Part shown: in pieces, positions 3,643 to 43,025 of the stretch
Layout of the letters: every line of letters starts with the position of its first letter
How positions within the stretch are numbered: position 1 is the stretch's first letter
NCBI GenBank assembly: GCA_050698135.1
Contig: JBOHBB010000166.1
Coordinates: forward strand, 1-50,082
From: Gaiellaceae bacterium
GTDB lineage: Bacteria; Actinomycetota; Thermoleophilia; Gaiellales; Gaiellaceae
Direction: 5' to 3'
DNA: 50,082 bases
Translations under genes and position numbers: made by a program
The notes under the pieces: model-generated
Database searches by the model: none
Told to the model about the DNA's origin: nothing
The model's input: only the letters and a program-made list of their open reading frames with translations

Positions 3643-3680
3643 GAGTTCGAGGGTACCTCGGTCGTCATAGGCTGCGCCCC

Positions 3681-5090: not shown

Positions 5091-5117
5091 CGGCGCCTCG
5101 CGTCTACTATCGGGTGG

Positions 5118-10363: not shown

Positions 10364-10537
10364 GTCGCCTCCTTCGTTCGTTCGTCCGAGCACAGCCCGC
10401 CGCGCGGGCCACGCACCAGTTCGGATACCCGCCCGGGGCGGAACTTGCGCCCGCGGACGGCATTCGTACGAAATCCTTACGGGCACGTCACAAACCGCTC
10501 AAGGAATGAACACCGCTCGGTGTCTGACTTCGCCCGA

Positions 10538-10559
10538 GTCAATCGCTCCGCGTCAATCG
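10538..10559 (+). repeat. Direct 8-nt repeat GTCAATCG x2 (starts 14 nt apart) upstream of the DUF1996 gene
   Basis: gtcaatcg occurs at 10538-10545 and 10552-10559, ending 20 nt before ATG 10580. Possible regulator site. Confidence 0.25.
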
Positions 10560-10579
10560 TCCGTGGGGAGGTCAACGAC

Positions 10580-11431
10580 ATGAGAGCACGCGTCATCGTC
10601 ATCGCGCTCGCCGGCTTCGTCGTCGTCGCGGTCACGTCCGCCGCGCTCGCGAAGCCACCTGCCCGCGATCAGCGGGGCGACATCGGCCGCGCCGACCTGC
10701 GCGGCGTCAACTTCATCGAGAACTGTCGCTTCAGCCACCAGGCGCCGGACGACCCGATCGTCTTCCCGGGCAAGCCGGGCGCCTCGCACCAGCACACGTT
10801 CGTGGGCAACCGGACGACGAACGCGTTCTCGACCTTCGGCTCGCTGCGCTCGGGCCGGACGACGTGCATGCGCTCCGACGACACGGCCGCCTACTGGGTG
10901 CCCGCCCTCTACCAGGGCTCGAACGTCGTGCTCCCGCGGGCGGCGACGATCTACTACCGGCGCGGCACGCTCGCGCAGGTGACCACGTTCCCGAACGGCC
11001 TGCGGATGATCGCCGGCGACGCCGCCGCGACGAGCCCGCAGGGCATGCGCGCGACCTTCTGGAGCTGCGGCGTGCTGTCGGGGGTTCCCCTGTCGAGCAC
11101 CGTGCCTACCTGTCCCCAGGCACGGGGCTCCGGACTTCGCCTGCACGTCCGCTTCCCGAGCTGCTGGGACGGGCGGAGGCTCGACAGCCCGGACCACACG
11201 AGCCACATGGCCTACGCCGTGCGCGGGACCTGCCCCGCCACGCACCCGGTCGCCGTCCCCGCGATCGCCCAGATCTACCGCTATCCGACGCTCGGCGGCG
11301 AGGGCTTCACGCTTGCGTCGGGAGGCGAGTTCAGCGCGCACGCCGACTTCTTCAACGCGTGGAAGCCGGGAGCGCTGAAGAGGCTCGTCGAGGGCTGCCT
11401 GAATGCCCTCGTCCACTGCGGGCGCGGGTAA
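10580..11431 (+). CDS. DUF1996 domain-containing secreted protein
   Basis: ATG 10580 follows GGGGAGG. Signal peptide MRARVIVIALAGFVVVAVTSAALA. DUF1996-like core CRFSHQAPDDPIVFPGKPGASHQHTFVGN...AAYWVPALY. Confidence 0.75.
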   Translation: MRARVIVIALAGFVVVAVTSAALAKPPARDQRGDIGRADLRGVNFIENCRFSHQAPDDPIVFPGKPGASHQHTFVGNRTTNAFSTFGSLRSGRTTCMRSDDTAAYWVPALYQGSNVVLPRAATIYYRRGTLAQVTTFPNGLRMIAGDAAATSPQGMRATFWSCGVLSGVPLSSTVPTCPQARGSGLRLHVRFPSCWDGRRLDSPDHTSHMAYAVRGTCPATHPVAVPAIAQIYRYPTLGGEGFTLASGGEFSAHADFFNAWKPGALKRLVEGCLNALVHCGRG

Positions 11432-11567
11432 GCATCCCGCGTCGCACACCGGAGGCGCCGGTGTCTGCCGCCCGGCGCCTCTGCCGCATCGTGGTCACGA
11501 CCTCCCAGGGCCCGCGCGCGACCGAGCCCTAACGACGCGCTCACAGACCGCCGCTACGGTCGAGGCC

Positions 11568-13712
11568 GTGACACGCCTCCGGCTCACGGTCGTGCTGCTC
11601 GCCGCGCTCGCGCTCTCGGGCTCCGTGGCTCGGGCGACCTCCGTGGGCGAGACGCGCGAGGTTCCGGTCCCGTCGCTCGAGCCGGCCCGGACGGCTACCG
11701 AGTGGCGCGCGCTCACCCGGGAGCAGCCACGCGCGCGCGGCGCCCAGGCGCCCTGCCGCCCGCTGCGGGCAGTCTTCTACGCCGCCTCCGACTGGCTGCG
11801 CCTGGCGACGAAGCTCCGTGCGAGCGCGTCGCCGTGCGCGGAGTACTACGTCTCGGTGCCTCCGATCGTCGCGGACAAGACGACGTTCCGCCGCGACCAG
11901 GCGTGGCGCATCAGGGCGCTCGGGCCGAGCTTCCACGCGCTGGCGGAGATCCACTTCGCGACCTGGAGTCGCTGGGTCTCATCGACCGGCAGCTCATGGC
12001 ACACCGCCGGCGTCACCGCACGCGAGCGGATGGCCGCCGCCGGGTACGACGTCGCGCTCGGCGACTCGTGGATGCTGAACGAGCTGACGTCCGCGGTGCG
12101 CCGAGGAGACGGGAACGCCCGTGCGAACGTCCGCGAGTTCCTGCGTGGCCTCTACGAGGGCGACGGACGGAGACCGACGAAGGGGGCCGTCCTCGTCATC
12201 GGTTTCGGCCAGCGGACGAGCAACGTCAGCGTCTACCAGAGCACGCTCCAGTCGTGGCTCGCCGACTCGGCGTTCTGGACGGACATGGCGACCTACGTCG
12301 GCGACTGGTCGCAGGAGGTCTACGGCGACCTCCGCGCGCACGCTGTCCCCGGCGCGCCGACACCCGTGCGCCGGGAGTACCTGAACGACTACTTGCAGCA
12401 CCAGCTCGTGCTCGCCGGGGCAGGACCGCCGGAGATCGAGCCCGCCCGTGCCTACCTGCGCGAGGCGTACAGCCCTCTCGCGAACGGCGCGTGGCCACGC
12501 GAGACCGCCTGGGGGTGGACGATGGTCCCCGCCGAGCAGATGGCCGCGTATCTCTCGGCGCAGGTGGACGCGCTGCGCTCCTTCAGCGCGACGAGCGGGC
12601 AGGCTCGCGACCACTGGGGGTTCGCATGGGCGCCGAGCAACACCACCGGGATGCCGCCGGGCGACTTCGCGGCCCAGACGGGGGCGCTTCTCGACCGGCT
12701 CGCCGCCGCGGTCCGTGACTCGGGCGCGCCCGACGATCCCGAGAGCCCCGGGAGCGGCGCGTGCGGCGCCGACGAGTCCCTGTGCGCGGTCGATCTCGCG
12801 GACGCCCGGCACAACGAGGCCTGGCGTTCGTTCCGCGCCTGGGCGCAGTCGATCCTCTCGCTCGGGCCTGCCTCGCCGATCACCCTCGTCGCCGGCGTCG
12901 CATCGGGCCCGCTCGAGCTGTCGGTCGCGTCGGCGGTCGCTCGGCCGGTGGCCGTGACGCTCCGTTCGAGCTCACCCGGGGGCGGGTTCTCGACGAGCCC
13001 GGCGGGGCCGTGGACGAGCGCGCCGACCCTCTCCGTCGTGCCCGGAACGCCCGCCGCCTTCTACCACCGCGACACGCGGGCGGGCACGGCGACCGTCATC
13101 GCCTCCGCGCCGGGCATCACGCAGGCGATGCGAGCGGTCAGTGTGACCGCCGGCGTCGCTGCACGCGTTACGGTCACGCCCGGCGCACGTGAGGTACGGG
13201 CGCGTGGCGAGGTCGTGTTCACCGGCGCCGCGACGGACGCCTTCGGGAACGCCAATGCGTCGCCGCTCTCCTGGGCGGTCACGCCGGCGACGCTCGGCAC
13301 CTTCGTGCGCGGGCGGGGCGCCAGTGTACGGTTCCGCGCCGGGCGCGTGCTCGGCACTGGGACCGTGACCGCCCGGGCCGGCTCGCTCGGCGGCTCGGCG
13401 ACGGTCGTGGTGCGTCCTGGAACACTCCGCGTGCGGGCGGTCGACGTCACCCGAACGGCGCAGGGCGCTCGGGTGACGCTCACGGCGCTCGACGGCGCGC
13501 GCAGACCGATCTCGCAGGCGGCCGTCACGCTGGTCGCCCGCCTCGACGGCCGGCGCGTCGGCCGCGCGCAGGGGGTGACAGGTGCCGCCGGGAAGGCGCG
13601 GCTCCGACTCACGCTCGGGCGAGGCTGCGTCTCCCTCGTCGTCACTGGCGCGCGCGCGGAAGGCTTCCGCTGGGACGGCCGCTCGCCACACGTCCGCTTC
13701 TGCCGTCGGTAG
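11568..13712 (+). CDS. Secreted protein of unknown function with C-terminal Ig-like (Big_2-like) repeats
   Basis: In-frame GTG 11568 gives a signal-like N-terminus (VTRLRLTVVLLAALALSGSVARA). About 450 aa have no motif I recognise. Ig-like segments follow, e.g. VTVTPGAREVRARGEVVFTGAATDAFGNANASPLSWAV...GTGTVTARAG...ATVVVRPG. Confidence 0.65.
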   Translation: MTRLRLTVVLLAALALSGSVARATSVGETREVPVPSLEPARTATEWRALTREQPRARGAQAPCRPLRAVFYAASDWLRLATKLRASASPCAEYYVSVPPIVADKTTFRRDQAWRIRALGPSFHALAEIHFATWSRWVSSTGSSWHTAGVTARERMAAAGYDVALGDSWMLNELTSAVRRGDGNARANVREFLRGLYEGDGRRPTKGAVLVIGFGQRTSNVSVYQSTLQSWLADSAFWTDMATYVGDWSQEVYGDLRAHAVPGAPTPVRREYLNDYLQHQLVLAGAGPPEIEPARAYLREAYSPLANGAWPRETAWGWTMVPAEQMAAYLSAQVDALRSFSATSGQARDHWGFAWAPSNTTGMPPGDFAAQTGALLDRLAAAVRDSGAPDDPESPGSGACGADESLCAVDLADARHNEAWRSFRAWAQSILSLGPASPITLVAGVASGPLELSVASAVARPVAVTLRSSSPGGGFSTSPAGPWTSAPTLSVVPGTPAAFYHRDTRAGTATVIASAPGITQAMRAVSVTAGVAARVTVTPGAREVRARGEVVFTGAATDAFGNANASPLSWAVTPATLGTFVRGRGASVRFRAGRVLGTGTVTARAGSLGGSATVVVRPGTLRVRAVDVTRTAQGARVTLTALDGARRPISQAAVTLVARLDGRRVGRAQGVTGAAGKARLRLTLGRGCVSLVVTGARAEGFRWDGRSPHVRFCRR

Positions 13713-28163: not shown

Positions 28164-29255
28164 TCAGGCGACGTCGCGGACGCGCTGTGCGTCCGCGAGC
28201 GCGCGGAGCTTCTTCAGCCCCTGGTGCTCGATCTGGCGGATGCGCTCGCGCGTCACGTTGAACGCCCGACCCACCTCGTCGAGCGTGCGCGGCTGTTGCC
28301 CGTCGAGCCCGTACCGGAGCTCGAGCACCATGCGCTCGCGCTCCGAGAGCGCGCCGAGGATCGAACGCAGCGCCTCGCGCTGCAGCGCGGTCTCCGCGAG
28401 CTCGTCCGGGAGCGGCGTCGAGTCGTCGGCGAGGAAGTGCCCGAACTCGGACTCGTCGTCGTCGCCCACCGGCTTCTCGAGCGAGACCGGGGTCTGCGCG
28501 CTCCGCCGGATCTGCGCGACCTCCTCCTGGGACATGTCGAGGTCGCGGGCGATCTCGTCGATCGTCGGCTCGCGCCCGCGCTCGGCGCGGAGCTTCCGCT
28601 CGGCGCGGAGGATCCGGTTCAGCTTCTCGACGACGTGGACGGGCATCCGGATCGTGCGGCCCTTGTCCGCGATCGCGCGGGCGACCGCCTGCCGGATCCA
28701 CCAGGTCGCGTAGGTCGAGAACTTGAAGCCCTTGCGGTAGTCGAACTTCTCGGCCGCGCGCACGAGCCCGATCGTCCCCTCCTGGATCAGGTCGAGGAAG
28801 GGCAGGCCCTGGTTGCGGTAGCGCTTCGCGATCGAGACGACGAGCCGGAGGTTCGCCTCCACCATCGCCTGCTTCGCCGCGTGCTCGCCGCGCTCGATGC
28901 GCTTCGCGAGCTCGACCTCCTGCGCCGCGGTGAGGAGCGGCACCTTGCCAATGTCCTTGAGGAAGAGCTGCAGCGAGTCGGTGGTGATCTCCGCGGCCGG
29001 CTCGACCTCGACCTCGGGCTCGTCCGCCTCGGCGTGGACGACCGCGATCTGCGCCTCGTCGAGCGCGGCATAGAACTCGTCGAGCTGCGCGGGATCGAGC
29101 TCGAGCTCGTCGAGCGCGAGGGCGACCTCGTCGGCGTCCAGGCGTCCGGTCTGGAGACCGCTCTCCAGCAGCCGTTGCGCCTCGTCCGTCGCGAGCACGT
29201 CCTCGACGGGGGTCCGAGCGGTCGTGCCCTGCGGTTCCCGTTCCCGTGCGGCCAA
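28164..29255 (-). CDS. RNA polymerase sigma-70 factor, RpoD/SigA-like (group 1 or 2)
   Basis: TTG start at 29255 after GGAAGGGGGG. Regions: 1.2 [29 protein letters not shown]; 2 [56 protein letters not shown]; 3 [14 protein letters not shown]; 4.2 [28 protein letters not shown]. Confidence 0.9.
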
Positions 29256-29283
29256 CCCACCCCCCTTCCTCGTCGGCCGTCAC

Positions 29284-29312
29284 ACGGTAGTCGGCAGATC
29301 GGCGGTCGTCAA
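29284..29312 (-). promoter_or_regulatory. Candidate promoter of the sigma factor gene
   Basis: Minus strand reads TTGACG (29312-29307), a 17-nt spacer, then TACCGT (29289-29284, TANNNT type). The -10 ends 28 nt before the TTG start. Pattern match only. Confidence 0.3.
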
Positions 29313-29392
29313 AGACAGGGCCGAGCGGCTGTGTGGGCCAGCGGCTCCAGGACATCGGTCCGATCTCGAACACCCGGGGGATCTACGAAGCG

Positions 29393-29437
29393 CGTCGCCG
29401 GCTCGCCGTTCGCTCGGGAAACCGCGAGACGGCGACG
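29393..29437 (-). terminator. Compound stem structure downstream of the candidate immunity gene
   Basis: cgtcgccg (29393-29400) is the exact reverse complement of cggcgacg (29430-29437), enclosing an inner ctcg...cgag stem. It begins 20 nt after the stop at 29457. Confidence 0.25.
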
Positions 29438-29456
29438 GCCTGCGCGAAGCGCTGCA

Positions 29457-30041
29457 CTAGAAAACGAAGCCCGGAGGGACGTCGATCGCGGTGACGCGGT
29501 CCGCTCCTACCTGCGCTATCAGGAGCGGAACTCGACCGAAATCGTCCGACCGCCGCGCGACAAGCTCCCAGTGACCCGGCGTCGGTGGCTTGCTGACGTA
29601 GCGCGCTCTCGGGTACAGCTGGCGAATTCTCCGAACGGAGTCGCCGACGCGGAGCCCACTCGCAGTCTTCCACCCGGTACCCCACAGCCGCATTCCGAGC
29701 CACGAACTTCGGCGTCGCAACTCGGCGTCGCCACATCCAGCGGCTCCGACGAAGTCGACGTCCACTCCAGGCGACTCCCACCGAACCGTGCACGTCGTCG
29801 ACATGGGATCGGTCGTCCCGCGGGCGCTCGGAACTCCGAATGCGGCGACCGCACGTTCGTAAGCCTGCCCCTGGCCGAGCTTGCCCCAGTAGTGGTACGG
29901 CCCGGCGCGGAGGCGCAGCACGAGCGTCGTATCGGTCCGTTTCTCGCCTTGATCGTCCCATGGACGAGACACGGCGACCGCCGCCAGCGCAGCGCCCGCG
30001 ACGAGGAGAATCACCCAGATTGCGGATCGACGTAGCTTCAC
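29457..30041 (-). CDS. Membrane-anchored extracytoplasmic protein of unknown function; candidate immunity protein for the upstream RHS toxin
   Basis: GTG 30041 lies 20 nt after the RHS stop. N-terminal anchor MKLRRSAIWVILLVAGAALAAVAVS. By hand count, 50 of 194 codons end in A/T, versus 2 of 95 in cysO. No family recognised. Confidence 0.6.
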   Translation of the reverse strand: MKLRRSAIWVILLVAGAALAAVAVSRPWDDQGEKRTDTTLVLRLRAGPYHYWGKLGQGQAYERAVAAFGVPSARGTTDPMSTTCTVRWESPGVDVDFVGAAGCGDAELRRRSSWLGMRLWGTGWKTASGLRVGDSVRRIRQLYPRARYVSKPPTPGHWELVARRSDDFGRVPLLIAQVGADRVTAIDVPPGFVF

Positions 30042-30061
30042 TTCGTGATGGTCACGGTGGG

Positions 30062-33000
30062 CTAGAAGCAGCGGCCGAGATACGGCCCTGGGCAGAACCT
30101 CTCAGGGTTTCCCCGCTCGAGGGCGATGTGGAGATGGGGAGCACCATTCGACGACCTTCCGGATCTCCCGAGGACTTGATCCAGTCGCACCCTCTGCCCT
30201 CTTTCCACGAACCGCACCGACAGATGGTGGTAGAAGACCCGATCGGTACGCCCGGCGATCGTAATCGTGAGGCCATCACTGCCTTCTGAGTTGGCACTCT
30301 CGACCCGACCACCGAACACAGCGCAGACCCTTGTTCCGACTGGAACGGTGATGTCTTGGGCGTTGTCGCTCTTCCAACCAGTGAGTGGCTTTGCCCTGTG
30401 ACCGGCCCTTCCACCTGCATTTATGCCAACCCGAGACAGCGGGTGGCCAGGCCGAGCACCACACGTGATCGGCGGGCGCGCAGGACGTCCACCACACGCT
30501 CGCGTCTGGCACCGGATGTCCGGGAAGTCCCAGTTCAGGGCCGAGGCGGCGAACCACGCCACATCCATGCCGTCACGCCCGGGCGTGAAGAGCTCGCCAG
30601 ACGCGTCGACCATGACGGTCGGACGGTTCGCCACGTACGAGTACGCCGATATGGCGCGGTCGTCCGGCGACTGACCTGCGGGATCCAGGCGCAAGAATCT
30701 CCCGGTCGCGGGGTCGTACTGCCTTGCGCGCAGGTGGTAGAGCCCGGTCGGGTCGAGATACTCGCCCGTGAATCTCATGGCGCTTTCGGGCTGATTGCCG
30801 TTCGCCTTCTCCTCCGTGCGGATTTCCCCGAACGGCTCGTACGACCACGTCCGCTGCGTCTGCCCACTCGGCGAGGCGAGGTGAGCCACCGAGCCGAGCC
30901 CGTCGTAGACGAAGTAGCTCGTGCCGTTCCCCGCGGTCTGGGAGATGCGGCGCATGCCGTACACATAGCGCCTCAGCAGCTTCTCGCTGCCATCCCTCTC
31001 CAAGGCGATCTGCGGCAGTCCCCCATTCATGTCCCAGAGGAAGCTCGTCCTGCGGTTCGCCTGGGAGCCTGTCGACGCCTGCACGCGGAGGTCGTCTCCG
31101 TCGTAGGCGTAGGTCGTCGTCGTCGAGCCTTGGGTCGTCGTCTTCGGGCGGTTGGCGAGGTCGTACGTGAACGTTCGACTGCCCGCGGAGAGCTCGTTTC
31201 CGTTCTGGTCGTAGGTGAAGCTCGTCGAGCCTGCCGAGAGCAGCCGATCGCGAGCGTCGTAGGTGTATGTGGTGCTGGCGCCGGGACGCTGTTCGGTGAG
31301 GCGGTTTCCGACCTCGTCGTACGTCCAGCGGATGAAGGGGTCGGACGCTCCGGCACAGCTCCCCACCTGGAAGCAGACGCTCGTCAGGCGGGAGTTCGCG
31401 TCGTAGCCGTAGGTCTGCGTCTGCGCGAGCGAGCCCGAGCGCACGATCTGGGTTGGATTCCCGACGCGGTCGAGCGTGGAGACGAAGCGGGCGAGGATCG
31501 TCGCGCCTCTCTGGCTCGAGACCTCCGTGAGCCGACCGACGCGATCGTACGTGCGCGACTCGACGTAGCCATTCCCGGACGGCAGGGTCGTCTGCACGAG
31601 GTTCGAGCTCACGTCGTAGGCATAGCTCGTCGTCTGCCCGCCGCTCGTGACCGCCGTCAAGCGGTCGAGGGCGTCGTAGGTGTAGTCGGTGACGACGCCC
31701 CCGGGGTAGGCGCGCCGCGTGACGTTCCCGGCGGCGTCGTACACATACGAGAACGTGCTCGAGCCGCGCAGGACCGTGAGCGGCCGGTCGAGGCCGTCGT
31801 ACGTGCGCGTCTCGGTGCCCTGGCCGTCGGTCATCGTCACGCGGTTCCCTGCGGCGTCGTAGGTGAACGTCACGTCCGCCGTCGCGTCCGAGTAGTCGAT
31901 CGAGGTGAGGCGGTTCGCGCGGTCGTATCCGTACGTCGTCCGCCCGTCGCCCGATGTGGGCGTCGCGTTCCCGTTCGGGTCCGTCAGCGTGACCCGGTTA
32001 CCGTTCGGGTCGTACGTGTGCGAGGTGACAGGAGCCGCCTGCGGGCCGCCGCCGTCGGGATCCGGCCCTGTCTCGGTGAGAAGCCTCCCGGCGTCGTCGT
32101 ACGCGTACGTCGTCGTGTGACCGTTGTCGTCTCGGCGGGTGAGGAGGTTGCCGGCGTCGTCGTACGCATACGTCGTCACTCCACCGTCAGGCGCGGCGAC
32201 GACCAGGATTCGCCCCGCGGCGTCGTGCGCGTACCTCGTGACGTGGTCGCTGGCATCTTCGACCGAGGCGAGGTTCCCGACGGCGTCGTACGTGTTCGCG
32301 GTGACGTTGCCGAGCGGGTCGGTCGCCGTCAGCAACCTGCCCGCGGCGTCGTAGGTGGAGGTCGTCCGGAAGTCGTCCGGGGTCGCACCCGCGGCGTTGC
32401 CACGCGGCTCGACGGTGCTCGCGGTGTTCCCGTTCCGGTCGTAGGTGAACGCCGTGACCGGGGCGGCGAGTAGGCCCCCGCCGTCTGGATCCGGGCGCGT
32501 CTTGGACACGACGCTGTTCGCTGCGTCGTAGGCGAAGATCGTCGTCGCCCCGCGCGGATCGGTCTCGGTGAGCTTGTTCCCGACATCGTCGTAGGTGTAC
32601 GTCGTGCGCGGGGCGGCGAGCAGGCCCGCGCCGTCGGGGTCGGGGCCTGTCTCGGCCACGAGACGGTTCGCGCTGTCGTAGGAGTAGGTGGTCCTGTGGT
32701 CGTTCGCGTTTGTCGAGCTCTGGAGCCTGCCCGCCCCGTCGTAGACGCTCGTCGTCACGTGCCCGAGCGGGTCCGTCTCGCTCAACTGATTCCCCGCGGG
32801 GTCGTACGTGTACGCCCAGGTGAACTGCGCGGCGCAGCCGCAGCCCGCGACGTTCCCCTTCGGGTCGACGCGAGCCACCACTCTCCCTGCGCCGTCGTAC
32901 GTGTAGGTCGTCCTGTTCCCGAGCGGGTCGGTGATCGAGGCGAGGTAGCCCGACGCGGGAACGTAGGTGTACGTCGTCGTCTTCTCGTTGCCGTCGGTGG

Positions 33001-34915
33001 AGGTGAGGACTCGCCCGGCGACGTCGTAGGTGTGGGAGGCGACTCCGGTTCCGTCCTGGGTGACACTCGCGGTGTTCCCGGACGGCGTGTACGCGAAGCT
33101 CGTGATCGTGCCTCGGGCGTCGGTGACCCGGGTCGGATCGTTGCGCGTGTTGTAGGCGAACGTCTTCTGCACGCCACCGAGCGACGCAGGAGCGGTCGTG
33201 GCGAGCAGGTTGCCGGCCGCGTCGTAGGCCATGGTGGTCTTCTCGTTCGTCGGCGACGTGACCGCGTCCGTGTTCAGGTCCGAGTCGTGGCCGAGCTCCG
33301 TCTCGTTGCCCAGGGGATCGACCTCCTTCACGAGGATCCCCTGCTCATAGGCGTGCTTCCAGGACTTGCCGTTCGCGTCGGTGACCGTCGCGATCTCCTG
33401 CGCCGGATCCCAGGCGAACCGGGTCGTCTGCTGGTCGGCGTCGGTCTGCGTCTGCACGCGACCTTCGGCGCCGTACACGTTCGTCACCTGCACGTGGTTC
33501 AGCGGGTCGACGACCGTCGCCAGCCTGCCGCCTGCGTCGTACGAGTAGGCCCACTGCTTCCCGCGGACGTCCGTGACGGACGCGAGGCGGCCCGAGGCGT
33601 AGGCATACGAAACGCTCCGCCCGTCCTGCGTCGACACCGAGCTGACGAGGCTCGAGGCGTTGTAGGCGACGGCCGCCTGCCTGCCTGCGGCATCCGTGAC
33701 GGTCGCGACCCGTCCCTGCGTGTCGTAGGTGAGGTCGACGCCCTGGCCGTTGCGGTCCTCGATCGACAGCAGGCGCCCCGCGCTCGTGAACGTGTACAGC
33801 ACCTGGTCCGTGCGGCGGAGCTCGTAACCGCCGGCGCTCGCCGTCAGCGTCGCCCGCGCTCCGGCGGCGCCGACGAACGCGCCGTCCGCCTGCTTCGAGA
33901 AGAGCATCTCTTGGCCCTCCTCGCCACGGGCGACGACGTCGCCGTTCGTCTGCGGGACGAGGGAAGCCGCGTACGCGTGCGTCCAGCCCGGGCCGAGTGG
34001 GCCTGCGGGGGCATCGCTCGAGGTGTAGGTCCTCGTCCAGGCGAAGGCGACACCCGTGCCGGGTGTCGTCAGGTCCTCGACCTGCGTCGTGAAGGCGCCC
34101 GTGCGCGTGTTCACGGGGTCGGAGAAGCACCGGCTCCCGCTCAGCCCCAACGAGCCGGAGCCCGAGCACGTGCCGTTCGACTGGCCGGGAGGCGGGCCGG
34201 AGGAAGGCGTCGTGAGCGTTCCACCGCCGAAGTCGTCCCACGCGGGGCTCGTCGCAACCGCGACCGAGAGCCCGAGCCCGATGCGGAGGTCGGCGGTGTA
34301 CGTCGAGTCGCTCGCGGACACCTCGAGCGTCCAGGTCGCTCCCCCGTCCTTCGAGCGCCAGCCCTGCAAGGCGTTCCCCTGCCGGCGAAGGAGCACGATG
34401 TGACCCGTCGCGACCCCGCCGCCCACGAACCCGGCCTGCGCGAGGACCTGCACGCCTCCCCAGTTCGTGCGCTTCCTGATCTGCCAGCCCGCGAAGCCGA
34501 AGGTGTTGACCGCGCGGAGGACGTACCCGTCCATCTGGTTCGTTCCACCGACCTCGGTCACGATTCCGAGGTCCGCCGCGGCGCCGTCGTCGAGCGCGCC
34601 CTTGAACGTCGCCCACACCTCGACGTCGCCGTCGAGCGTCTGGGGGGCCCAGTGGTACAGGCTCGTGATCGAGGTTTGGCTCGGAAGCGTGACCTGGTTG
34701 TTCAGGAGTTGGATCACGTTCGAGCTGGTGTCCGCCTTCGCCCAGTTCCCGCCGCCCGAGAGCGTGCTCTCGTTCGGGCGGTCGAAGTCGTCGAGGAGCG
34801 GCGTGGTGCGGATGTCGGCGAGCGAAGCATTCTGCGCGGATGTGGCACGCGCGACGAGCGGAACGGCAACGAGCACGAGTGTTGCGAGGACGAACGCCAC
34901 CCGACGACGATTCAT
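30062..34915 (-). CDS. RHS/YD-repeat polymorphic toxin: signal peptide, N-terminal jelly-roll-like domain, RHS cage, and C-terminal M23/LytM-like peptidase domain
   Basis: - ATG 34915 follows AGGAGGAG.
- Signal peptide: MNRRRVAFVLATLVLVAVPLVARATSA.
- N-terminal plug: CFSDPVNTRTGAF.
- Dozens of YD repeats (e.g. YTYDxxGR, YAYDxAGN).
- Core end: LRARQYDPATGRFLRLDP...YSYVANRPTVMVDASGE.
- The 176-aa tail aligns by eye with lysostaphin-type M23: DITVPVGTRVCAVFGGRV...VFYHHLS...VLGRSGRSSNGAPHLHIAL. Confidence 0.9.
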   Translation of the reverse strand: MNRRRVAFVLATLVLVAVPLVARATSAQNASLADIRTTPLLDDFDRPNESTLSGGGNWAKADTSSNVIQLLNNQVTLPSQTSITSLYHWAPQTLDGDVEVWATFKGALDDGAAADLGIVTEVGGTNQMDGYVLRAVNTFGFAGWQIRKRTNWGGVQVLAQAGFVGGGVATGHIVLLRRQGNALQGWRSKDGGATWTLEVSASDSTYTADLRIGLGLSVAVATSPAWDDFGGGTLTTPSSGPPPGQSNGTCSGSGSLGLSGSRCFSDPVNTRTGAFTTQVEDLTTPGTGVAFAWTRTYTSSDAPAGPLGPGWTHAYAASLVPQTNGDVVARGEEGQEMLFSKQADGAFVGAAGARATLTASAGGYELRRTDQVLYTFTSAGRLLSIEDRNGQGVDLTYDTQGRVATVTDAAGRQAAVAYNASSLVSSVSTQDGRSVSYAYASGRLASVTDVRGKQWAYSYDAGGRLATVVDPLNHVQVTNVYGAEGRVQTQTDADQQTTRFAWDPAQEIATVTDANGKSWKHAYEQGILVKEVDPLGNETELGHDSDLNTDAVTSPTNEKTTMAYDAAGNLLATTAPASLGGVQKTFAYNTRNDPTRVTDARGTITSFAYTPSGNTASVTQDGTGVASHTYDVAGRVLTSTDGNEKTTTYTYVPASGYLASITDPLGNRTTYTYDGAGRVVARVDPKGNVAGCGCAAQFTWAYTYDPAGNQLSETDPLGHVTTSVYDGAGRLQSSTNANDHRTTYSYDSANRLVAETGPDPDGAGLLAAPRTTYTYDDVGNKLTETDPRGATTIFAYDAANSVVSKTRPDPDGGGLLAAPVTAFTYDRNGNTASTVEPRGNAAGATPDDFRTTSTYDAAGRLLTATDPLGNVTANTYDAVGNLASVEDASDHVTRYAHDAAGRILVVAAPDGGVTTYAYDDAGNLLTRRDDNGHTTTYAYDDAGRLLTETGPDPDGGGPQAAPVTSHTYDPNGNRVTLTDPNGNATPTSGDGRTTYGYDRANRLTSIDYSDATADVTFTYDAAGNRVTMTDGQGTETRTYDGLDRPLTVLRGSSTFSYVYDAAGNVTRRAYPGGVVTDYTYDALDRLTAVTSGGQTTSYAYDVSSNLVQTTLPSGNGYVESRTYDRVGRLTEVSSQRGATILARFVSTLDRVGNPTQIVRSGSLAQTQTYGYDANSRLTSVCFQVGSCAGASDPFIRWTYDEVGNRLTEQRPGASTTYTYDARDRLLSAGSTSFTYDQNGNELSAGSRTFTYDLANRPKTTTQGSTTTTYAYDGDDLRVQASTGSQANRRTSFLWDMNGGLPQIALERDGSEKLLRRYVYGMRRISQTAGNGTSYFVYDGLGSVAHLASPSGQTQRTWSYEPFGEIRTEEKANGNQPESAMRFTGEYLDPTGLYHLRARQYDPATGRFLRLDPAGQSPDDRAISAYSYVANRPTVMVDASGELFTPGRDGMDVAWFAASALNWDFPDIRCQTRACGGRPARPPITCGARPGHPLSRVGINAGGRAGHRAKPLTGWKSDNAQDITVPVGTRVCAVFGGRVESANSEGSDGLTITIAGRTDRVFYHHLSVRFVERGQRVRLDQVLGRSGRSSNGAPHLHIALERGNPERFCPGPYLGRCF

Positions 34916-34975
34916 GCTTTCTCCTCCTGCGGGCGGCGAGGAGTGCCACGACGATCCGATTAGGCGGGCGTTTCC

Positions 34976-35003
34976 ATTCTGCGAATGTCCAGCCTCGTGT
35001 CAA
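34976..35003 (-). promoter_or_regulatory. Candidate sigma-70-type promoter of the RHS gene
   Basis: Minus strand reads TTGACA (35003-34998), a 16-nt spacer, then CAGAAT (34981-34976), inside a locally AT-richer 146-nt intergenic region. Pattern match only. Confidence 0.3.
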
Positions 35004-35016
35004 TTGGCACAATTGG
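35001..35016. repeat. Tandem CAATTGG x2, each containing the palindrome CAATTG, overlapping the candidate -35
   Basis: caattgg occurs at 35001-35007 and 35010-35016, separated by ca. Confidence 0.4.
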
Positions 35017-35061
35017 GCAGGTCCGCAGCAGCCACGCACGGAGGAGGCCGTTCCGCAGAGC

Positions 35062-36033
35062 TCAGCCGCGCGCCTTGCGGATCGCCGCGAGGTAACGCTT
35101 CGCCTCGATGGCCAGCGGCGAGCCGGGCTGCGTGCGGGAGGCGCGCCGGAGCTGGCGCTCGGCCTCGTCGACCCGTGCGGTCCAGAGGAGGAGCACGCCG
35201 AGGTGGAAGCGCACCGTCGCCTCTTCGGGGAACCTGCGAGAGAGCGGTCCCAGCCGTCCGAACGCGAGCGCCGGGTTCGCCTTGTCGAACGCGCCGACCG
35301 CGGCGGCCACCTGGGCCTCCGCGTCGCGTGGAGCGCGGCGAGCCGCCTGCTCGAAGACACCGGCCGCCGACACCGGGCGCCCGACGCGCCGGAGGCCGAC
35401 CCCGTAGAGCAGTAGCTCGCGGACGCCGCCGCGCTCGGCGCGCACGCGGAGCGCCTCCAGCTGGCGCCCGGCCGGCAGCTTCGTGACCGCCGTGGGCGCC
35501 TCGAACGAAGGGATGAAGGTCGGCAGCCCCCGCGGCAGCTTCGGATGGAGGACGTTCCCGGCGAGGGTCGCGTACGGCGTGTCGGGCTCGGCCTCGGCCG
35601 CCGCCTGCCAGGCGGTGAGCGGGTCGCCCTCGTTCGCCCACAGGCGTGCGAGCCCGAGGTGGAGCTGGACGACCGCCTGCTCGGGATAGAGCTTCCCGAG
35701 CTGCTCGAGCCGGTCGAGCGAGCCCTCGGGCCACGACGCGAGCGCCCCACCGACCTTCGCCTCGAGCGAGTCGTGCTCCGTGAACAGCGCGGCGGCCTTC
35801 GCCGTCTCACCTCGGCCGTACAGCGCCGCACCGCGGGCGAGGTCCCGCGCCTCGCGGTCCGTGCGGAAGCCGAGTGCGAAGGCGAGCGGCGGACGGCCGG
35901 GCCGGAGGCCTGCCTCCTCCGTCGTCGGTGTCGCCGACTCGCCGTCGGCGGATACGACCGCCACCGCGACGACCGCGACTGCCGCGGCAGCGACGAGTGC
36001 GACGAGGAGGACGATGCGCCGGCGGGCCGTCAT
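35062..36033 (-). CDS. Membrane-anchored TPR-like helical-repeat protein
   Basis: N-terminal anchor MTARRRIVLLVALVAAAAVAVVAVAVV. Repeated helical hairpins follow, e.g. VVQLHLGLARLWANEGDPLTAWQAAAEAEPD and VRFHLGVLLLWTARVDEAERQLRRA. Confidence 0.6.
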   Translation of the reverse strand: MTARRRIVLLVALVAAAAVAVVAVAVVSADGESATPTTEEAGLRPGRPPLAFALGFRTDREARDLARGAALYGRGETAKAAALFTEHDSLEAKVGGALASWPEGSLDRLEQLGKLYPEQAVVQLHLGLARLWANEGDPLTAWQAAAEAEPDTPYATLAGNVLHPKLPRGLPTFIPSFEAPTAVTKLPAGRQLEALRVRAERGGVRELLLYGVGLRRVGRPVSAAGVFEQAARRAPRDAEAQVAAAVGAFDKANPALAFGRLGPLSRRFPEEATVRFHLGVLLLWTARVDEAERQLRRASRTQPGSPLAIEAKRYLAAIRKARG

Positions 36034-36077
36034 CCCGCGACGATAGCCAGCAGGCCGCCGCTATAGTTCGGAAAGTA

Positions 36078-37403
36078 ATGGCCGGCTACCGGGAGCTGCT
36101 CGCGAGCGTGCGCTCGGAGATCGAGGAGATCTCGACGATCGAGGCGCAGGAGCGGCACGCCGGCCCCGACTCGCCCCTCTTCGTCGACGTCCGCGAGCCG
36201 GACGAATGGGAGGAGGGCCACATCCCCGGCGCGGTGTACACGGGCCGCGGCCGGCTCGAGCAGCGGATCGAGGGGCTCGTCCCGGACAAGAGCCGCGCAC
36301 TCGTCGTCTACTGCTCCGCGGGCTCGCGCTCGGCGTTCGCGACGAAGGCGCTCGAGGAGCTCGGGTACCTCGACGTCGTCAACCTCGCGGGCGGCTTCTC
36401 CGACTGGAAGCGGAACGGCTTCGACGTCACCATCCCGCGCGTCCTCTCCACCGAGCAGCGCGCGCGCTACAGCCGCCACCTCCTCATCCCCGAGGTCGGC
36501 GAGGACGGGCAGCAGCGGCTGCTCGACGCACGCGTCCTCCTCGTCGGCGCCGGCGGCCTCGGCTCGCCCGCGTCGCTGTACCTCGCCGCAGCGGGCGTCG
36601 GCACGCTCGGGATCGTCGACGCGGACGTCGTCGACGAGTCGAACCTCCAGCGCCAGATCGTCCACGCCACCGACCGGCTCGGAGAGCCGAAGGTGCTCTC
36701 CGCGAAACGGACCGTCGAGGCGCTCAACCCCGACGTGCGTGTCGTCCCGTTCCAGGAGCGCCTGACCTCCGAGAACGTCGACCGCATCCTCGCCGACGGC
36801 TGGGACGTGATCGTCGACGGCGCGGACAACTTCCCCACGCGCTACCTCGTGAACGACGCCTCGGTCTGGCACGGGATCCCGGTCGTGCACGGCTCGATCT
36901 TCCGCTTCGAGGGGCAGGTCACCGTGTTCGCGCCGGGCGAGGGCCCGTGCTATCGCTGCCTCTTCCCGAAGCCGCCGCCCCCGGAGCTCGCCCCGAGCTG
37001 CGCGGAGGGCGGCGTCCTCGGCGTCCTGCCGGGGATCATCGGCTCGATCCAGGCGAGCGAGGCGCTGAAGCTGATCCTCGACCGGGGCGACTCGCTCTCC
37101 GGCCGGCTGCTCCTCTTCGACGCGCTCGGGACGACGCTCGACGAGGTGATCGTGCGCCGCGACCCGGAGTGCCCCGTGTGCGGCGAGCACCCGACGATCA
37201 CCGAGTACATCGACTACGTCGAGTTCTGCAACGCCTCTGCGGCATCCCGGCCGGAGTCGGCTCTCGCCGGGCGAAGCCCGGCTTCGCCGCCCCCTGCCGC
37301 CGTTGCCGGCACCTCGCCTTCCGGGCCCGTGCCTCGTCGCACTGTGCCCTCCGGCCCGGCACCGGCAACGGCGACCCGGGGAAGCGCAGAGGAGGGTGAC
37401 TGA
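36078..37403 (+). CDS. Rhodanese-E1 fusion: MoeB/ThiF/MoeZ-type sulfur-carrier adenylyltransferase with an N-terminal rhodanese domain
   Basis: - ATG 36078. The ORF-track start at 35874 would overlap the TPR gene.
- Rhodanese active-site loop: VVYCSAGSRS.
- E1 motifs: LLVGAGGLGSPASLYLAAAGVG, DESNLQRQ, CYRC...CPVC and PSCAEGGVLG.
- About 55 aa of P/S/A-rich tail. Confidence 0.85.
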   Translation: MAGYRELLASVRSEIEEISTIEAQERHAGPDSPLFVDVREPDEWEEGHIPGAVYTGRGRLEQRIEGLVPDKSRALVVYCSAGSRSAFATKALEELGYLDVVNLAGGFSDWKRNGFDVTIPRVLSTEQRARYSRHLLIPEVGEDGQQRLLDARVLLVGAGGLGSPASLYLAAAGVGTLGIVDADVVDESNLQRQIVHATDRLGEPKVLSAKRTVEALNPDVRVVPFQERLTSENVDRILADGWDVIVDGADNFPTRYLVNDASVWHGIPVVHGSIFRFEGQVTVFAPGEGPCYRCLFPKPPPPELAPSCAEGGVLGVLPGIIGSIQASEALKLILDRGDSLSGRLLLFDALGTTLDEVIVRRDPECPVCGEHPTITEYIDYVEFCNASAASRPESALAGRSPASPPPAAVAGTSPSGPVPRRTVPSGPAPATATRGSAEEGD

Positions 37404-37690
37404 TGGCCGCGGTCCGCATCCCGCCCACGCTCCGCGCGGAGGTCGGCGGCGCCCGGCAGCTCGAGGCCGACGGGGAGACCGTCGCCGACGTCCTCGACGA
37501 CCTCGTCGAGCGGCATCCCGCCCTCCGCCCGCAGCTCCTCGCGGACGGCGAGCTCGCGCCCTTCGTGAACGTGTTCGTCGGCGGCGAGGACATCCGCACG
37601 CTCGACGGCACGGAGACGCCGGTCCGGAACGGCGACAGCCTCATCCTCCTGCCCGCCATGGCGGGCGGCAGCCCCTCCGCTGCCGCGTAG
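37403..37690 (+). CDS. cysO: MoaD/ThiS-family sulfur-carrier protein (CysO-like) with a 6-residue extension after Gly-Gly
   Basis: The ATG shares one base with the E1 stop (TGATG), and GGAGGG lies upstream. 95 aa ending ...GDSLILLPAMAGG-SPSAAA. Confidence 0.8.
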   Translation: MAAVRIPPTLRAEVGGARQLEADGETVADVLDDLVERHPALRPQLLADGELAPFVNVFVGGEDIRTLDGTETPVRNGDSLILLPAMAGGSPSAAA

Positions 37691-37697
37691 CGGCTGC

Positions 37698-38636
37698 ATG
37701 GCCAGGGCGCTCGCACCCTCGCTTCTCGACCTCGTCGGGTCGACGCCGCTCGTCGAGCTGCCGCGACTCTCGCCGAAGCCTGCGGTCCGCCTGTACGCGA
37801 AGCTCGAGGGCCAGAACCCGACCGGCTCGATCAAGGACCGCGTCGCGAAGGCGATGATCGACGCGGCCGAGGCGTCTGGGGAGCTCGAGCCGGGACGCCG
37901 CCTGCTCGAGCCGACGAGCGGGAACACCGGGATCTCGCTCGCGCTCCTCGCGAAGCTCCGGGGGTACGCGCTCACCTGCGTGATGCCGGCGAGCGTGACC
38001 GAGGAGCGGCGTCGGCTTCTTCGCCTGTACGGCGCCGAGATCGTCGAGTCGCCGGCGGAGGAGGGATCGAACGGCGCCGTCCGCCTCGCGCTCCGGCTCG
38101 CGGAGCAGGATCCCACGTACTTCATGCCGTTCCAGTACGCGAACGAGGCGAACCCGCGCGCGCACTACGAAGGCACCGGCGCGGAGATCGCCGCCGAGCT
38201 CGATCGCGTCGACGTCCTCGTCGCCGGGCTCGGGACCGGCGGCACGCTGATGGGGGCGGGCGACCGACTGCGCGAGGCGTTCCCGGGCCTCGTCGTCGCC
38301 GCGGCCGAGCCGCTCCCGGGCGACGAGGTCATGGGCCTGCGCTCGCTCGCGGACGGCTACGTCCCGCCGATCCTCGACGTCTCGAAGCTCGACCGGAAGC
38401 TCCTCGTCTCGAACGAGGAGTCGGTCGCGGGGCTCCGGCTCCTGCTCGAGCGGGAAGGCGTGTTCGGCGGCGTCTCCTCGGGCGCCGTGATCCATGCCGC
38501 GCGCAGGGTGGCCGACGAGCTCGACGAGGGCGTCGTCGTCTGCGTCCTCGCGGACGGCGGCTGGAAGTACCTGTCCGCAGGCTTCTGGGACGCCGAGGAC
38601 GTCGAGGCGGCGATGGAGCGCTCCGTCTGGTGGTGA
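37698..38636 (+). CDS. cysM: PLP-dependent cysteine synthase, CysM-type by context
   Basis: GQNPTGSIKDRVA (PLP lysine), TSGNTGISLA and GLGTGGTLMG. It is flanked by the CysO-like and JAMM genes. Confidence 0.85.
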   Translation: MARALAPSLLDLVGSTPLVELPRLSPKPAVRLYAKLEGQNPTGSIKDRVAKAMIDAAEASGELEPGRRLLEPTSGNTGISLALLAKLRGYALTCVMPASVTEERRRLLRLYGAEIVESPAEEGSNGAVRLALRLAEQDPTYFMPFQYANEANPRAHYEGTGAEIAAELDRVDVLVAGLGTGGTLMGAGDRLREAFPGLVVAAAEPLPGDEVMGLRSLADGYVPPILDVSKLDRKLLVSNEESVAGLRLLLEREGVFGGVSSGAVIHAARRVADELDEGVVVCVLADGGWKYLSAGFWDAEDVEAAMERSVWW

Positions 38637-41199: not shown

Positions 41200-42072
41200 T
41201 CAGCCTTTCAGCGCTCCGGCCATCAGGCCGCGCATGAAGTAGCGGCCCAGCAGGATGTACACGATGAGTGTCGGCAGCGAGGCGATCAGCGCCGCGGCCA
41301 TCTGCACGTTGTAGGGGGTCACGAGCGATCCGGTCGTGTTGTTGAGCGCGACGGTCACGGGCCAGGACGCAGGGTCGGTGACGATGAACACCGCGAACAG
41401 GAAGTCGTTCCAGATCGAGGTGAACTGCCAGATCGCGGTCACGACGAAGGCGGGCGCCGAGATCGGGAGCACGACGGACCAGTATGTCCGCAGCATCCCG
41501 GCCCGGTCCATCCGCGCCGCCTCGATCAGGTCCTCGGGGATCGTGGCGTAGTAGCTGCGGAAGATCAGCGTCGTGATCGGAATGCCGTAGACGATGTGCG
41601 CGAACGCGAGCCGTGGGATTCCCTCCGGGAAGTCGACGTCGATGAAGATCTGCGTGAGCGGGATCATCACCGCCTGGTACGGGATGAAGAGGCCGAACAG
41701 CAGGAAGAGGAAGACGAGGTCGGCGCCGGGGAAGCGCCATCGCGACAGGACGAAGCCGTTCAGCGAGCCGATGACCGTGGAGATGAGCGTCGCGGGGATG
41801 ACGAGCTTGAGGCTGTTCTTCAGGAACGGGAGGAGGCCGTACTGCTCGCCGTTCCACGCCTCGCGCCACGCGTCGAGGCTCCACGACTCCGGCAACGCCC
41901 AGGCGCGGCTCGGGTCCGCCTCGCCGGCCCCTTTGAAGCTCGCGACGAGCAGCACGTAGATGGGCAGGAGGACGACGATCGCGGCGAAGACGAGCGCCGC
42001 GTACTTGAGTACGCGCACGCCCGTGCCGCGACGGCGGCGGCGGCGCATGCGGCCGAGGGCGACCGAGGTCAT
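41200..42072 (-). CDS. Carbohydrate ABC transporter permease (CUT1)
   Basis: ATG 42072 (4-nt overlap with the upstream permease). EAA loop: IEAARMDRAGMLRTYWSVVLP. Confidence 0.85.
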   Translation of the reverse strand: MTSVALGRMRRRRRRGTGVRVLKYAALVFAAIVVLLPIYVLLVASFKGAGEADPSRAWALPESWSLDAWREAWNGEQYGLLPFLKNSLKLVIPATLISTVIGSLNGFVLSRWRFPGADLVFLFLLFGLFIPYQAVMIPLTQIFIDVDFPEGIPRLAFAHIVYGIPITTLIFRSYYATIPEDLIEAARMDRAGMLRTYWSVVLPISAPAFVVTAIWQFTSIWNDFLFAVFIVTDPASWPVTVALNNTTGSLVTPYNVQMAAALIASLPTLIVYILLGRYFMRGLMAGALKG

Positions 42073-43025
42073 ACGCGCCGCTCCGAGCGAACGGTGTAGA
42101 TCAGGTACGGGACGATGAGCACCGAGATCCCGACCAGGAGGAGCGTCGCGATCGCAGCTCCCTTCGCGTAGTCGCGCGCGTCGTAGATCAGGATCCACAT
42201 GTAGACCGCCGGCGTCTGCGTGATCAGCTGCTTCCCGCCGATGGCGACGATCAGGTCGAAGACCTTGATCGAGATGTGGCCGAGGATGATGAGCGCGGAC
42301 AGCGTCACCGGGCGCAGGTGCGGGAAGACCACGTGGCGGTACACGCGCCACTCCGAGGCGCCGTCCATGCGCGCCGCCTCGCGGAGCTCCTCGGGGACGC
42401 CGCGGAAGCCCGCGAGGTAGAGCGCCATGATGTACCCGGAGAGCGCCCACATCGCCGGCAGCGCGAGCGCGGCCGCGCCCCAGTCGGCCCCCAGGTACCA
42501 CTCGTTCGCGAGGAAGCCGAGACCGAGCCTGTCGAAGAGCAGGTTGAAGCCCGTGGCCCGGTCGCCCGGGGCGGGGTTCATCAGCCACCGCCAGACGACG
42601 CCGGCCGCGATGAACGACACCGCCATCGGGAAGAGGTAGATCGCGCGGAACATCCCCTCGCCCTTCACGCCCTTGTCGAGCAGGAACGCGAGCGAGCCGC
42701 CGACGATCAGCGCCCCGAGCACAAACGCCACGGTGAAGAGCAGCGCGTGGTGCAGGTCGATGATCCAGGCAGGATCGGTGCTGAGGCTCTCCGGCTGGTC
42801 GCCCGTCGCGACGGCGCGGACGAACTCACCCGTCTCCCCCGCTCCGGAAGGGAACAGCTCCTTGTACGCGCTCGTGTCGAACCCCGAGGTCTCCTCCGCC
42901 TGGCGCCAGTCGGAGAGGGAGACCTTGACGTTCCAGCCGATGAGCCCGTAGACGAAGACCGCGACGAGCAAGATCGACGGGGAGACCAGGAGAAGCCCTG
43001 GTCCCCACCGTCTGATCTTCCTCAC
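42069..43025 (-). CDS. Carbohydrate ABC transporter permease (CUT1)
   Basis: GTG 43025 follows GGAGG. EAA loop: REAARMDGASEWRVYRHVVFP. Confidence 0.85.
   Translation of the reverse strand: MRKIRRWGPGLLLVSPSILLVAVFVYGLIGWNVKVSLSDWRQAEETSGFDTSAYKELFPSGAGETGEFVRAVATGDQPESLSTDPAWIIDLHHALLFTVAFVLGALIVGGSLAFLLDKGVKGEGMFRAIYLFPMAVSFIAAGVVWRWLMNPAPGDRATGFNLLFDRLGLGFLANEWYLGADWGAAALALPAMWALSGYIMALYLAGFRGVPEELREAARMDGASEWRVYRHVVFPHLRPVTLSALIILGHISIKVFDLIVAIGGKQLITQTPAVYMWILIYDARDYAKGAAIATLLLVGISVLIVPYLIYTVRSERRV

Follow-up and report, generated by a model that had tools for sequence, protein, structure and literature searches.

The 50,082-nucleotide stretch considered here, hereafter the window, spans positions 1 to 50,082 of contig JBOHBB010000166.1 in assembly GCA_050698135.1 of a Gaiellaceae bacterium, a member of the Actinomycetota. 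Its minus strand harbours a gene for a large RHS protein followed, after a gap of 20 nt between the RHS stop codon and the next start codon, by a gene for a protein of 194 amino acids. The two genes are likely to constitute an RHS-class polymorphic toxin/immunity cassette of an uncultured soil actinobacterium of high G+C content, with a wall-cutting tip and an exported immunity protein. The G+C content of the window is high, at ∼0.64–0.77 per kb. A Shine-Dalgarno sequence, GGAGGAG, lies 5 nt before the RHS ATG and a promoter-like site further upstream agrees with the consensus at 10 of 12 positions: one such site was found, against 0.3 expected in shuffled sequences. No terminator-like site was found within 29100–35300. 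Flanked by a sigma-70 gene and a TPR gene, the cassette lies ∼25 kb from lhr and an HhH-GPD gene; the sigma-70 and LanC labels of the neighbours in the window are Pfam matches in the near-identical locus L001. The features of the cassette are the following.

34976..35003, minus strand: promoter-like element, TTGACA-16 nt-CAGAAT, ∼60 nt 5' of the RHS start codon (consensus match only)
30062..34915, minus strand: predicted RHS polymorphic-toxin gene, 1617 amino acids and stop codon (open reading frame and profile matches)
34844..34915, minus strand: signal peptide, residues 1–24, MNRRRVAFVLATLVLVAVPLVARA followed by TSA (read from the sequence)
34211..34804, minus strand: N-terminal domain of unknown family, residues ∼38–235, from LDDFDR to WDDFGGG (homolog conservation)
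33899..34120, minus strand: DUF6531 plug, residues 266–339, including DPVNTRTGAF (E=2.4e-19)
30842..33898, minus strand: YD/RHS-repeat shell, residues 340–1358 (profile matches)
30593..30841, minus strand: Rhs-associated core, residues 1359–1441, RARQYDPATGRFLRLDP...VMVDASGE, with putative aspartyl autoprotease and cleavage site (TIGR03696)
30065..30592, minus strand: variable C-terminal tail of type A, residues 1442–1617 (176 amino acids), a ∼40-residue low-confidence linker and then a Cys-rich M23-fold domain (profile and model)
30113..30364, minus strand: Peptidase_M23 Pfam match, residues 1518–1601, with D1521, H1564 and H1594/H1596
29457..30041, minus strand: candidate immunity gene, 194 amino acids, A1 family (open reading frame and homolog searches)

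A preliminary description, made from the letters of the sequence alone, had assigned a signal peptide, a DPVNTRTGAF plug, a YD-repeat cage and an RHS core end to the 1617-residue open reading frame (ORF), and all four were recovered at the positions given above. The signal peptide, which contains RRRVAF, has a basic n-region and a hydrophobic core and ends in an A-x-A site. Hydrophobic, signal-like starts are also present in the homologs P0019 and L010, without the RR pair. The N-terminal domain that follows, bounded by LDxFxR and WDDFGG, is conserved in P0019 and occurs as two tandem copies in the RHS protein of L010. It has no Pfam match and, searched as a four-sequence profile, no PDB sequence match even at E<=10; our guess is that it binds the wall or carbohydrates, and it may be a jelly roll of lectin type. 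Further N-terminal modules are found on P0019 and on the 2258-residue RHS protein of L095. DUF6531 closes the shell at its N-terminal side, and the shell itself is matched by RHS_repeat (E=2e-125, 25 stretches) and YD_repeat_2x (E=1.5e-98). Shells of related RHS proteins are 62–67% identical to that of the window, and their tails 35–49%. The closest RHS shells in named genomes, at 59% identity, belong to one Actinomycetota metagenome-assembled genome (MAG) and one Gaiellaceae MAG. TIGR03696 (Rhs_assc_core) covers residues 1359–1440 with 67 bits against a cut-off of 32.5, which places the core directly before the tip. The core sequence RARQYDPATGRF...VDASGE retains the autoprotease Asp, and its Pro is replaced by Ala: the motif at the core end (residues 1436–1441, 30593–30610) reads DASGE in the window and DPSG followed by E, A, K, Q or M in all relatives examined. 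The final residue of this motif differs throughout the clade from the Leu of DPxGL, which we take to be the canonical form.

The tail beyond the core is an M23 domain by profile and by predicted fold, as the preliminary description had proposed by eye. PF01551 (Peptidase_M23), with a gathering score of 28.7, matches it at 49–51 bits, and the NCBIfam models for MepM, ShyA and DipM match weakly, under their equivalog cut-offs. An AlphaFold2 model of the tail, built with 42 subfamily sequences as input, has a mean predicted local distance difference test (pLDDT) score of 84, which exceeds 90 over tail residues ∼45–165. Compared with the PDB by Foldseek, this model gave 61 matches at E<=1e-3 and, among the matches listed, 50 of 50 are M23/LytM proteins with a probability of 1.00. 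They include ShyA, Csd3, lysostaphin, LytM and EnpA, with template modelling (TM) scores of ∼0.5–0.6 normalised to the target domain, as well as EnvC LytM domains and SpoIIQ. The profile and PDB matches go far beyond what chance would give. A viral library yielded 119 matches; of the best 50, those that bear a name are M23 peptidases of phages, tape-measure proteins, endolysins and further proteins of tail or lysis function. The blocks VPVGTRVCAVFGGRV, FYHHLS and APHLHIAL, which had been singled out at the outset together with the HxH pair, do align with the M23 core, the catalytic His (H1564) and the HxH motif (H1594 and H1596). Across the 42 subfamily sequences tail residues H123 and H155 do not vary and H153 is conserved to at least 90%; D1521, H1564, H1594 and H1596 all show little or no variation. 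The tail contains six Cys, and RHS-borne versions are characterized by extra Cys and a conserved C-terminal end of the form FC...PC followed by F or Y.

The first half of the metal site is unusual. The Asp of the M23 motif HxxxD is present as D1521, and the position of the first His is occupied by D1517, so that in alignments DNAQD of the tail stands where ShyA has HNGTD and 9gy1 has HNGID. Profile alignments of the tail to all solved M23 structures do not begin before the Asp, and a search among these structures found none with the SDNAxD variant. The likeness to lysostaphin/LytM-type enzymes drawn in the preliminary description holds for the fold; the nearest relatives form a distinct M23 subfamily in which the canonical HxxxD is absent, a feature that had been missed. 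In this subfamily the signature W-x-S-D-N-A-x-D is shared by 137 of the 150 best relatives of the tail, and the residue at the canonical His position among these is D in 124, E in 7, S in 4, K in 1 and C in 1. The tail of the L090 RHS protein carries Lys there. Since this position varies, it is not a conserved ligand, and the obvious candidate is a His further upstream: 132 of the 137 signature-bearing relatives have one no more than 12 residues upstream of the signature, 11–15 residues before the Asp. In the window the conserved upstream His is H1506, within GHRAKPLTGW, which is a candidate replacement for the first zinc ligand. As the canonical HxxxD is lacking, the tail is assigned here to a divergent subfamily of M23-fold domains and is not classed as a canonical M23 peptidase. 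Zinc binding and peptidoglycan endopeptidase activity of the tail are predicted from its sequence; with the first zinc-ligand His gone, the same applies to its catalytic competence.

This subfamily is large. In a phmmer search of 1.84 billion cluster representatives, the tail was matched at E<=1e-3 by 3879 M23 proteins, of which 215 reached E<=1e-10 and only two E<=1e-30. A word-indexed homolog search had returned a single generic M23 protein, a limit of its sensitivity, as the exhaustive search found thousands. An Rhs core is present in only five of the 150 best relatives (P0013, P0015, P0016, P0017 and P0019); P0018, which starts with the core-end motif DPSGL and falls outside this regular-expression count, is probably a sixth case. 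The other relatives are small secreted or SLT-fused proteins and very long coiled-coil proteins with lytic-transglycosylase modules, the latter looking like phage tape-measure proteins. By these sequence matches the M23 subfamily of the RHS tip occurs mostly outside RHS proteins. In annotated genomes of Streptomyces and Staphylococcus phages, matches to the tail fall inside genes labelled 'tape measure protein'. The tape-measure M23 domain of Streptomyces phage TunaTartare (L094) itself lacks the signature and displays a non-canonical spacing of His and Asp, NHSNLPRATDF. A second type of RHS tail, type B below, is likewise devoid of the canonical HxxxD spacing, with PHYRALDF in L010 and NHGTAGLAGYVARDF in L004. 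In M23 domains of phage and toxin type, the first His and the Asp may often be separated by a variable loop.

The protein encoded 20 nt downstream consists of an N-terminal hydrophobic segment (residues ∼7–25), a disordered linker and an alpha/beta body (residues ∼55–190). Its existence and its hydrophobic start had been correctly noted; the designation of the latter as a membrane anchor is uncertain, as the segment could be a cleavable signal peptide instead. Eleven homologs, here termed the A1 family, were retrieved by a first search and 72 by a profile search: all are unnamed and without a Pfam domain, and they share the hydrophobic segment, a linker of variable length, a conserved body of ∼140 residues and two invariant Cys. 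Together, the six Cys of the tail, the invariant Cys of the partner and the hydrophobic N-termini point to an extracytoplasmic character. The AlphaFold2 model of the partner reaches a pLDDT of ∼87 over residues 55–190 and had no relative at E<=1e-3 in Foldseek. Its best matches, all small extracellular proteins (the C-terminal domain of 4ifa, DUF4309 of YjgB and YfeY), have TM scores of <=0.5 and were left uninterpreted. A Pfam match to DUF4129, with E=0.005 and under the cut-off, was set aside. A scan of 185,579 species-representative genomes contained no A1 relative. Three members of the family outside RHS loci deserve description: in L008 a lone A1 gene (3881–4549) sits between polA and rpsA, in L009 a lone A1 gene (2981–3456) is split by a frameshift, and in L098 a distant member (3796–4299) lies among PIN/RHH and RES genes, in a toxin-antitoxin-rich setting, and is followed by a gene for a DUF6636 protein.

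Tail and partner occur side by side beyond the window. A type-A tail is followed by an A1 gene, at distances from −10 to +44 nt, in the window, L002, L005, L090/L091, L095 and L096/L097; contig L092 starts within the end of a type-A tail ('...HLHIALRFGNPTRFCRPGRILSPC'), directly upstream of an A1 gene. This adjacency extends over seven independent loci, and an A1 gene follows every complete type-A tail found. The divergence of tail and partner co-varies across six loci (r=0.90, 15 pairs), in a comparison uncorrected for shared ancestry. L001, which derives from the same species as the window, was left out of the count: its contig starts 106 nt upstream of the A1 gene. G+C content at third codon positions (GC3) falls from 0.91 in the RHS body, and 0.91–0.96 in neighbouring genes, to 0.68 in the tail and 0.74 in the partner; the composition of tail and partner is foreign to the host genes.

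Three types of tail, A, B and C, are mounted on this one family of shells. Type B, represented in L004 and L010, passes the Pfam M23 cut-off with 29–33 bits, and the gene downstream of it encodes a small signal-peptide protein without a Pfam match. Downstream of type C, represented by P0019 (L006), lies a gene for a protein that combines a hydrophobic N-terminus with PD40 beta-propeller repeats. L004 (identical to L007) retains the traces of a replacement: within positions 1–2490 it accommodates an RHS gene with a type-B tail, a candidate signal-peptide partner (MRSTFAMLACFFLLGVVSALS...), a remnant of a type-A tail that ends '...GNPERFCPGPYRRPCY' at its stop codon ∼1 kb downstream of the RHS gene, and an intact A1 gene. 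Displaced tips of this kind are known from rhs loci (PMC4436062). The tips therefore vary and are replaced on a conserved shell; unusually, every tip seen in the clade is of M23 type. Of the 80 RHS loci taken from species-representative genomes, L010 is the sole one with an M23-type tail. The chromosomal site varies too. The cassette adjoins lhr in L002, L095 and L096, the last two of which have an HhH-GPD gene after it, whereas in the window lhr (1–3927), a GMC oxidoreductase gene and the HhH-GPD gene (5091–5678) have no cassette among them. As the window's own cassette is ∼25 kb away, the sites differ between syntenic genomes. By the seven paired loci and the remnant in L004, the downstream ORF, first put forward as a candidate immunity gene, encodes a conserved, exported partner of this type of tail, and a toxin/immunity function, as far as it can be predicted from sequence, is supported by this comparative evidence.

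As to export, scans of the ORFs across the 50-kb window revealed metabolic and housekeeping genes and no type VI (T6SS) or type VII (T7SS) secretion genes, in accord with what had first been reported. The RHS protein has no Pfam match to PAAR, to a VgrG-binding domain or to an LXG/WXG-type N-terminus, and so does not belong to the T6SS/T7SS-effector class. Twin-arginine translocation (Tat) was rejected as the main route: the RRR run is not conserved in the homologs P0019 and L010, which makes Sec likelier than Tat. Sec export has been proposed for another RHS toxin, WapA (PMC4436062).

Elsewhere in the window, a 769-residue ORF (11403–13712, plus strand) has an internal start that resembles a signal peptide (VTRLRLTVVLLAALALSGSVARATS), repetitive C-terminal Ig-like segments and no Pfam match; a gene for a secreted DUF1996 protein (10445–11431, plus strand) lies just before it. 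At ∼36000–38636 (plus strand) three adjacent ORFs look, by eye, like a ThiF/MoeB-rhodanese protein, a 95-residue ThiS/CysO-type carrier and a CysM-type cysteine synthase. The carrier continues for a few C-terminal residues beyond its GG (…AMAGGSPSAAA). By this resemblance the trio would be a sulfur-carrier cysteine pathway of the actinobacterial type. A 121-residue ORF at 41594–41959 (plus strand), antisense to an ABC permease gene (41200–42588, minus strand), has a G+C content of 0.41 at first codon positions and a GC3 of 0.97, and is almost certainly not a gene.

The proposed mode of action of the cassette begins with export. The RHS protein would be made with its signal peptide and would leave the cytoplasm by the general (Sec) pathway. 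Outside the membrane, to judge from what is known of the family, the YD-repeat shell and its DUF6531 plug would enclose the 176-residue tail, and the aspartyl autoprotease of the Rhs core would free it by cleavage between VDASGE and LFTPG. The disulfide-rich tail, with its M23/LytM fold, is predicted to cut the peptide cross-links that join the peptidoglycan of cells nearby and thereby to be toxic; as it would cut the wall from outside, no import into the target would be needed. The 194-residue protein, presumably co-transcribed and exported or tethered to the membrane on the surface of the producer, would neutralise this type of tail, most likely by direct binding.

A number of points tell against this scheme. 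The first His of HxxxD is missing from the tail. The model of the partner is without a significant structural relative, so its fold lends no support to a role as inhibitor. Four of the 12 A1 homologs with readable context (L008, L009, L093 and L098) have no RHS tail upstream; these may be orphan immunity genes, and an independent function would fit them also. Shared ancestry may account for part of the co-variation of tail and partner. DASGE in place of DPSGx at the core end might affect autocleavage, and the caged enzyme would have to exit from its shell outside the cell. Finally, the type of envelope of the host is uncertain: Gaiella occulta, the only cultured species of the Gaiellaceae, is Gram-negative in staining and thin-walled (PMC6741124).

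The missing His invites the explanation that the tail has lost catalysis, as have the LytM-type domains of EnvC, NlpD or SpoIIQ, and that in place of cutting cross-links it binds peptidoglycan or mis-activates amidases of the target, an effect that the partner would block. The spread of D, E, S, K and C over the first-ligand position fits this idea, as does the appearance of EnvC LytM domains and SpoIIQ among the structural matches. Degenerate LytM factors, however, usually lose several active-site residues, whereas the other four here (Asp, catalytic His and the two of HxH) are invariant or nearly so; the upstream His of 132 of the 137 signature-bearing relatives could supply the ligand, and the company of lytic-transglycosylase modules in tape-measure-like members of the subfamily suggests a hydrolytic role. 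A dead domain is on balance improbable. We see an equally slim chance that no weapon is involved at all, and that the RHS protein remodels the surface or wall of its own cell, with the 194-residue protein as a regulator or an unrelated wall neighbour. Lone A1 genes among housekeeping genes, such as that between polA and rpsA, would suit such a role, and the three types of tail in the clade share one enzyme fold, where RHS tips usually have unrelated ones. Set against this are the foreign composition of tail and partner, the tip replacement in L004 with the old tail remnant and its partner kept, the three unrelated exported partners for three types of tail, the differing chromosomal sites of the cassette in related genomes and the absence of the partner family from the species-representative set. 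Such features mark an accessory conflict system.

A further alternative leaves the toxin/immunity function intact and concerns delivery alone: an outer layer might hold the exported RHS protein in a periplasm-like compartment, from which an unlinked dedicated system or lysis of the cell would bring it to its targets, or export might proceed by Tat. The staining of G. occulta, the RRRVAF run in the signal peptide and a view limited to 50 kb of the genome leave room for it. Conversely, the window holds no secretion genes, P0019 and L010 lack the twin arginine, and Sec has its precedent in WapA (PMC4436062). Moreover, the legend to the electron micrograph of G. occulta names a thin peptidoglycan layer and a cell membrane, and the term 'outer membrane' does not occur in the paper (PMC6741124). 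Delivery beyond Sec is accordingly judged unlikely, and a Sec-exported, wall-cutting RHS toxin with an exported immunity protein is the reading retained here.

Most components of such a cassette have precedents, and its architecture is what the polymorphic-toxin framework predicts. The nearest parallel is WapA/WapI of Bacillus subtilis, which has the same succession of signal peptide, YD/RHS repeats, Rhs core and variable C-terminal toxin, an immunity gene immediately downstream, and export without a dedicated secretion system (PMC4436062). The tips of WapA differ in kind: as nucleases, in strain 168 a tRNase, they have to reach the cytoplasm of the target, in contrast to the wall-peptidase fold found here. 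WapI is a cytoplasmic protein, whereas the present partner is exported, and the latter has no detectable sequence relation to WapI families. Lysostaphin and zoocin A share with the tail the M23 fold, the catalytic His and HxH, and secreted M23 bacteriolysins of their kind act from outside on the walls of competitors. Unlike the RHS-caged tail, which lacks the canonical HxxxD, these enzymes possess it, stand alone and are equipped with wall-targeting domains. Producer immunity in lysostaphin-type systems consists of a FemABX-like modification of the cross-bridge and not of a small exported protein. The nearest non-RHS relatives of the tail share with it the signature W-x-S-D-N-A-x-D and include proteins that look like phage tape-measure proteins; unlike the RHS tips, M23 domains of phage tape-measure proteins are embedded in virion proteins and have no immunity partner. 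M23 domains of tape-measure proteins and tail lysins are thought to aid penetration of the wall during infection.

Wall-cutting tips of polymorphic toxins are on record as well. The catalogue of Zhang et al. (2012) includes RHS and other polymorphic toxins that have predicted L,D-peptidase or NlpC/P60 wall tips and a linked immunity gene, and toxins that, as may hold for the present one, carry adhesion-type N-terminal domains after the signal peptide (PMC3482391). The wall peptidases there are thiol peptidases, unlike the metallopeptidase fold found here, and the greater part of the text contains neither 'M23' nor 'LytM' (PMC3482391). M23 effectors with adjacent immunity genes are known from T6SS, for example the Tse4/Tpe groups of Acinetobacter and the WHIX-M23 proteins (PMC6833914, PMC12135965). 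These are delivered by the T6SS into the periplasm of diderm cells, whereas no T6SS genes accompany the cassette in the window. In tables of T6SS effectors the M23 and RHS domains stand in separate groups and are not fused (PMC6833914, PMC12135965). Within the library searched, no paper contains both 'RHS repeat' and 'Peptidase_M23'. From these negative results the RHS-M23 fusion, the partner family and the altered M23 motif appear to be undescribed.

A joint reading of wider reach is put forward tentatively, and as a whole it is rather doubtful. It would make the 72-member A1 family, which has neither a Pfam domain nor a confident structural relative, the founder of a class of small exported M23 inhibitors. 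The tips would have diversified within the M23 fold into types A, B and C, each countered by an unrelated exported immunity protein (A1, the small signal-peptide protein and the PD40 beta-propeller protein, respectively). The first zinc ligand would have been relocated from HxxxD to the His 11–15 residues upstream, a previously undescribed variant, and the RHS shell would prevent a wall-cutting enzyme from doing damage while it is exported.

These observations bring to notice an M23 subfamily that is large and uncharacterised, and its altered version of the textbook HxxxD motif means that the metal site merits a structure. If the interpretation of the cassette is true, actinobacterial RHS toxins gain a payload that cuts the wall and acts from outside, and the unsolved question of how Sec-exported RHS toxins enter the target cell would no longer be a problem for this group. 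Three types of M23 tip and three exported partners would then provide a compact system for the study of how proteins inhibit M23 peptidases, which bears on lysostaphin-like enzybiotics.

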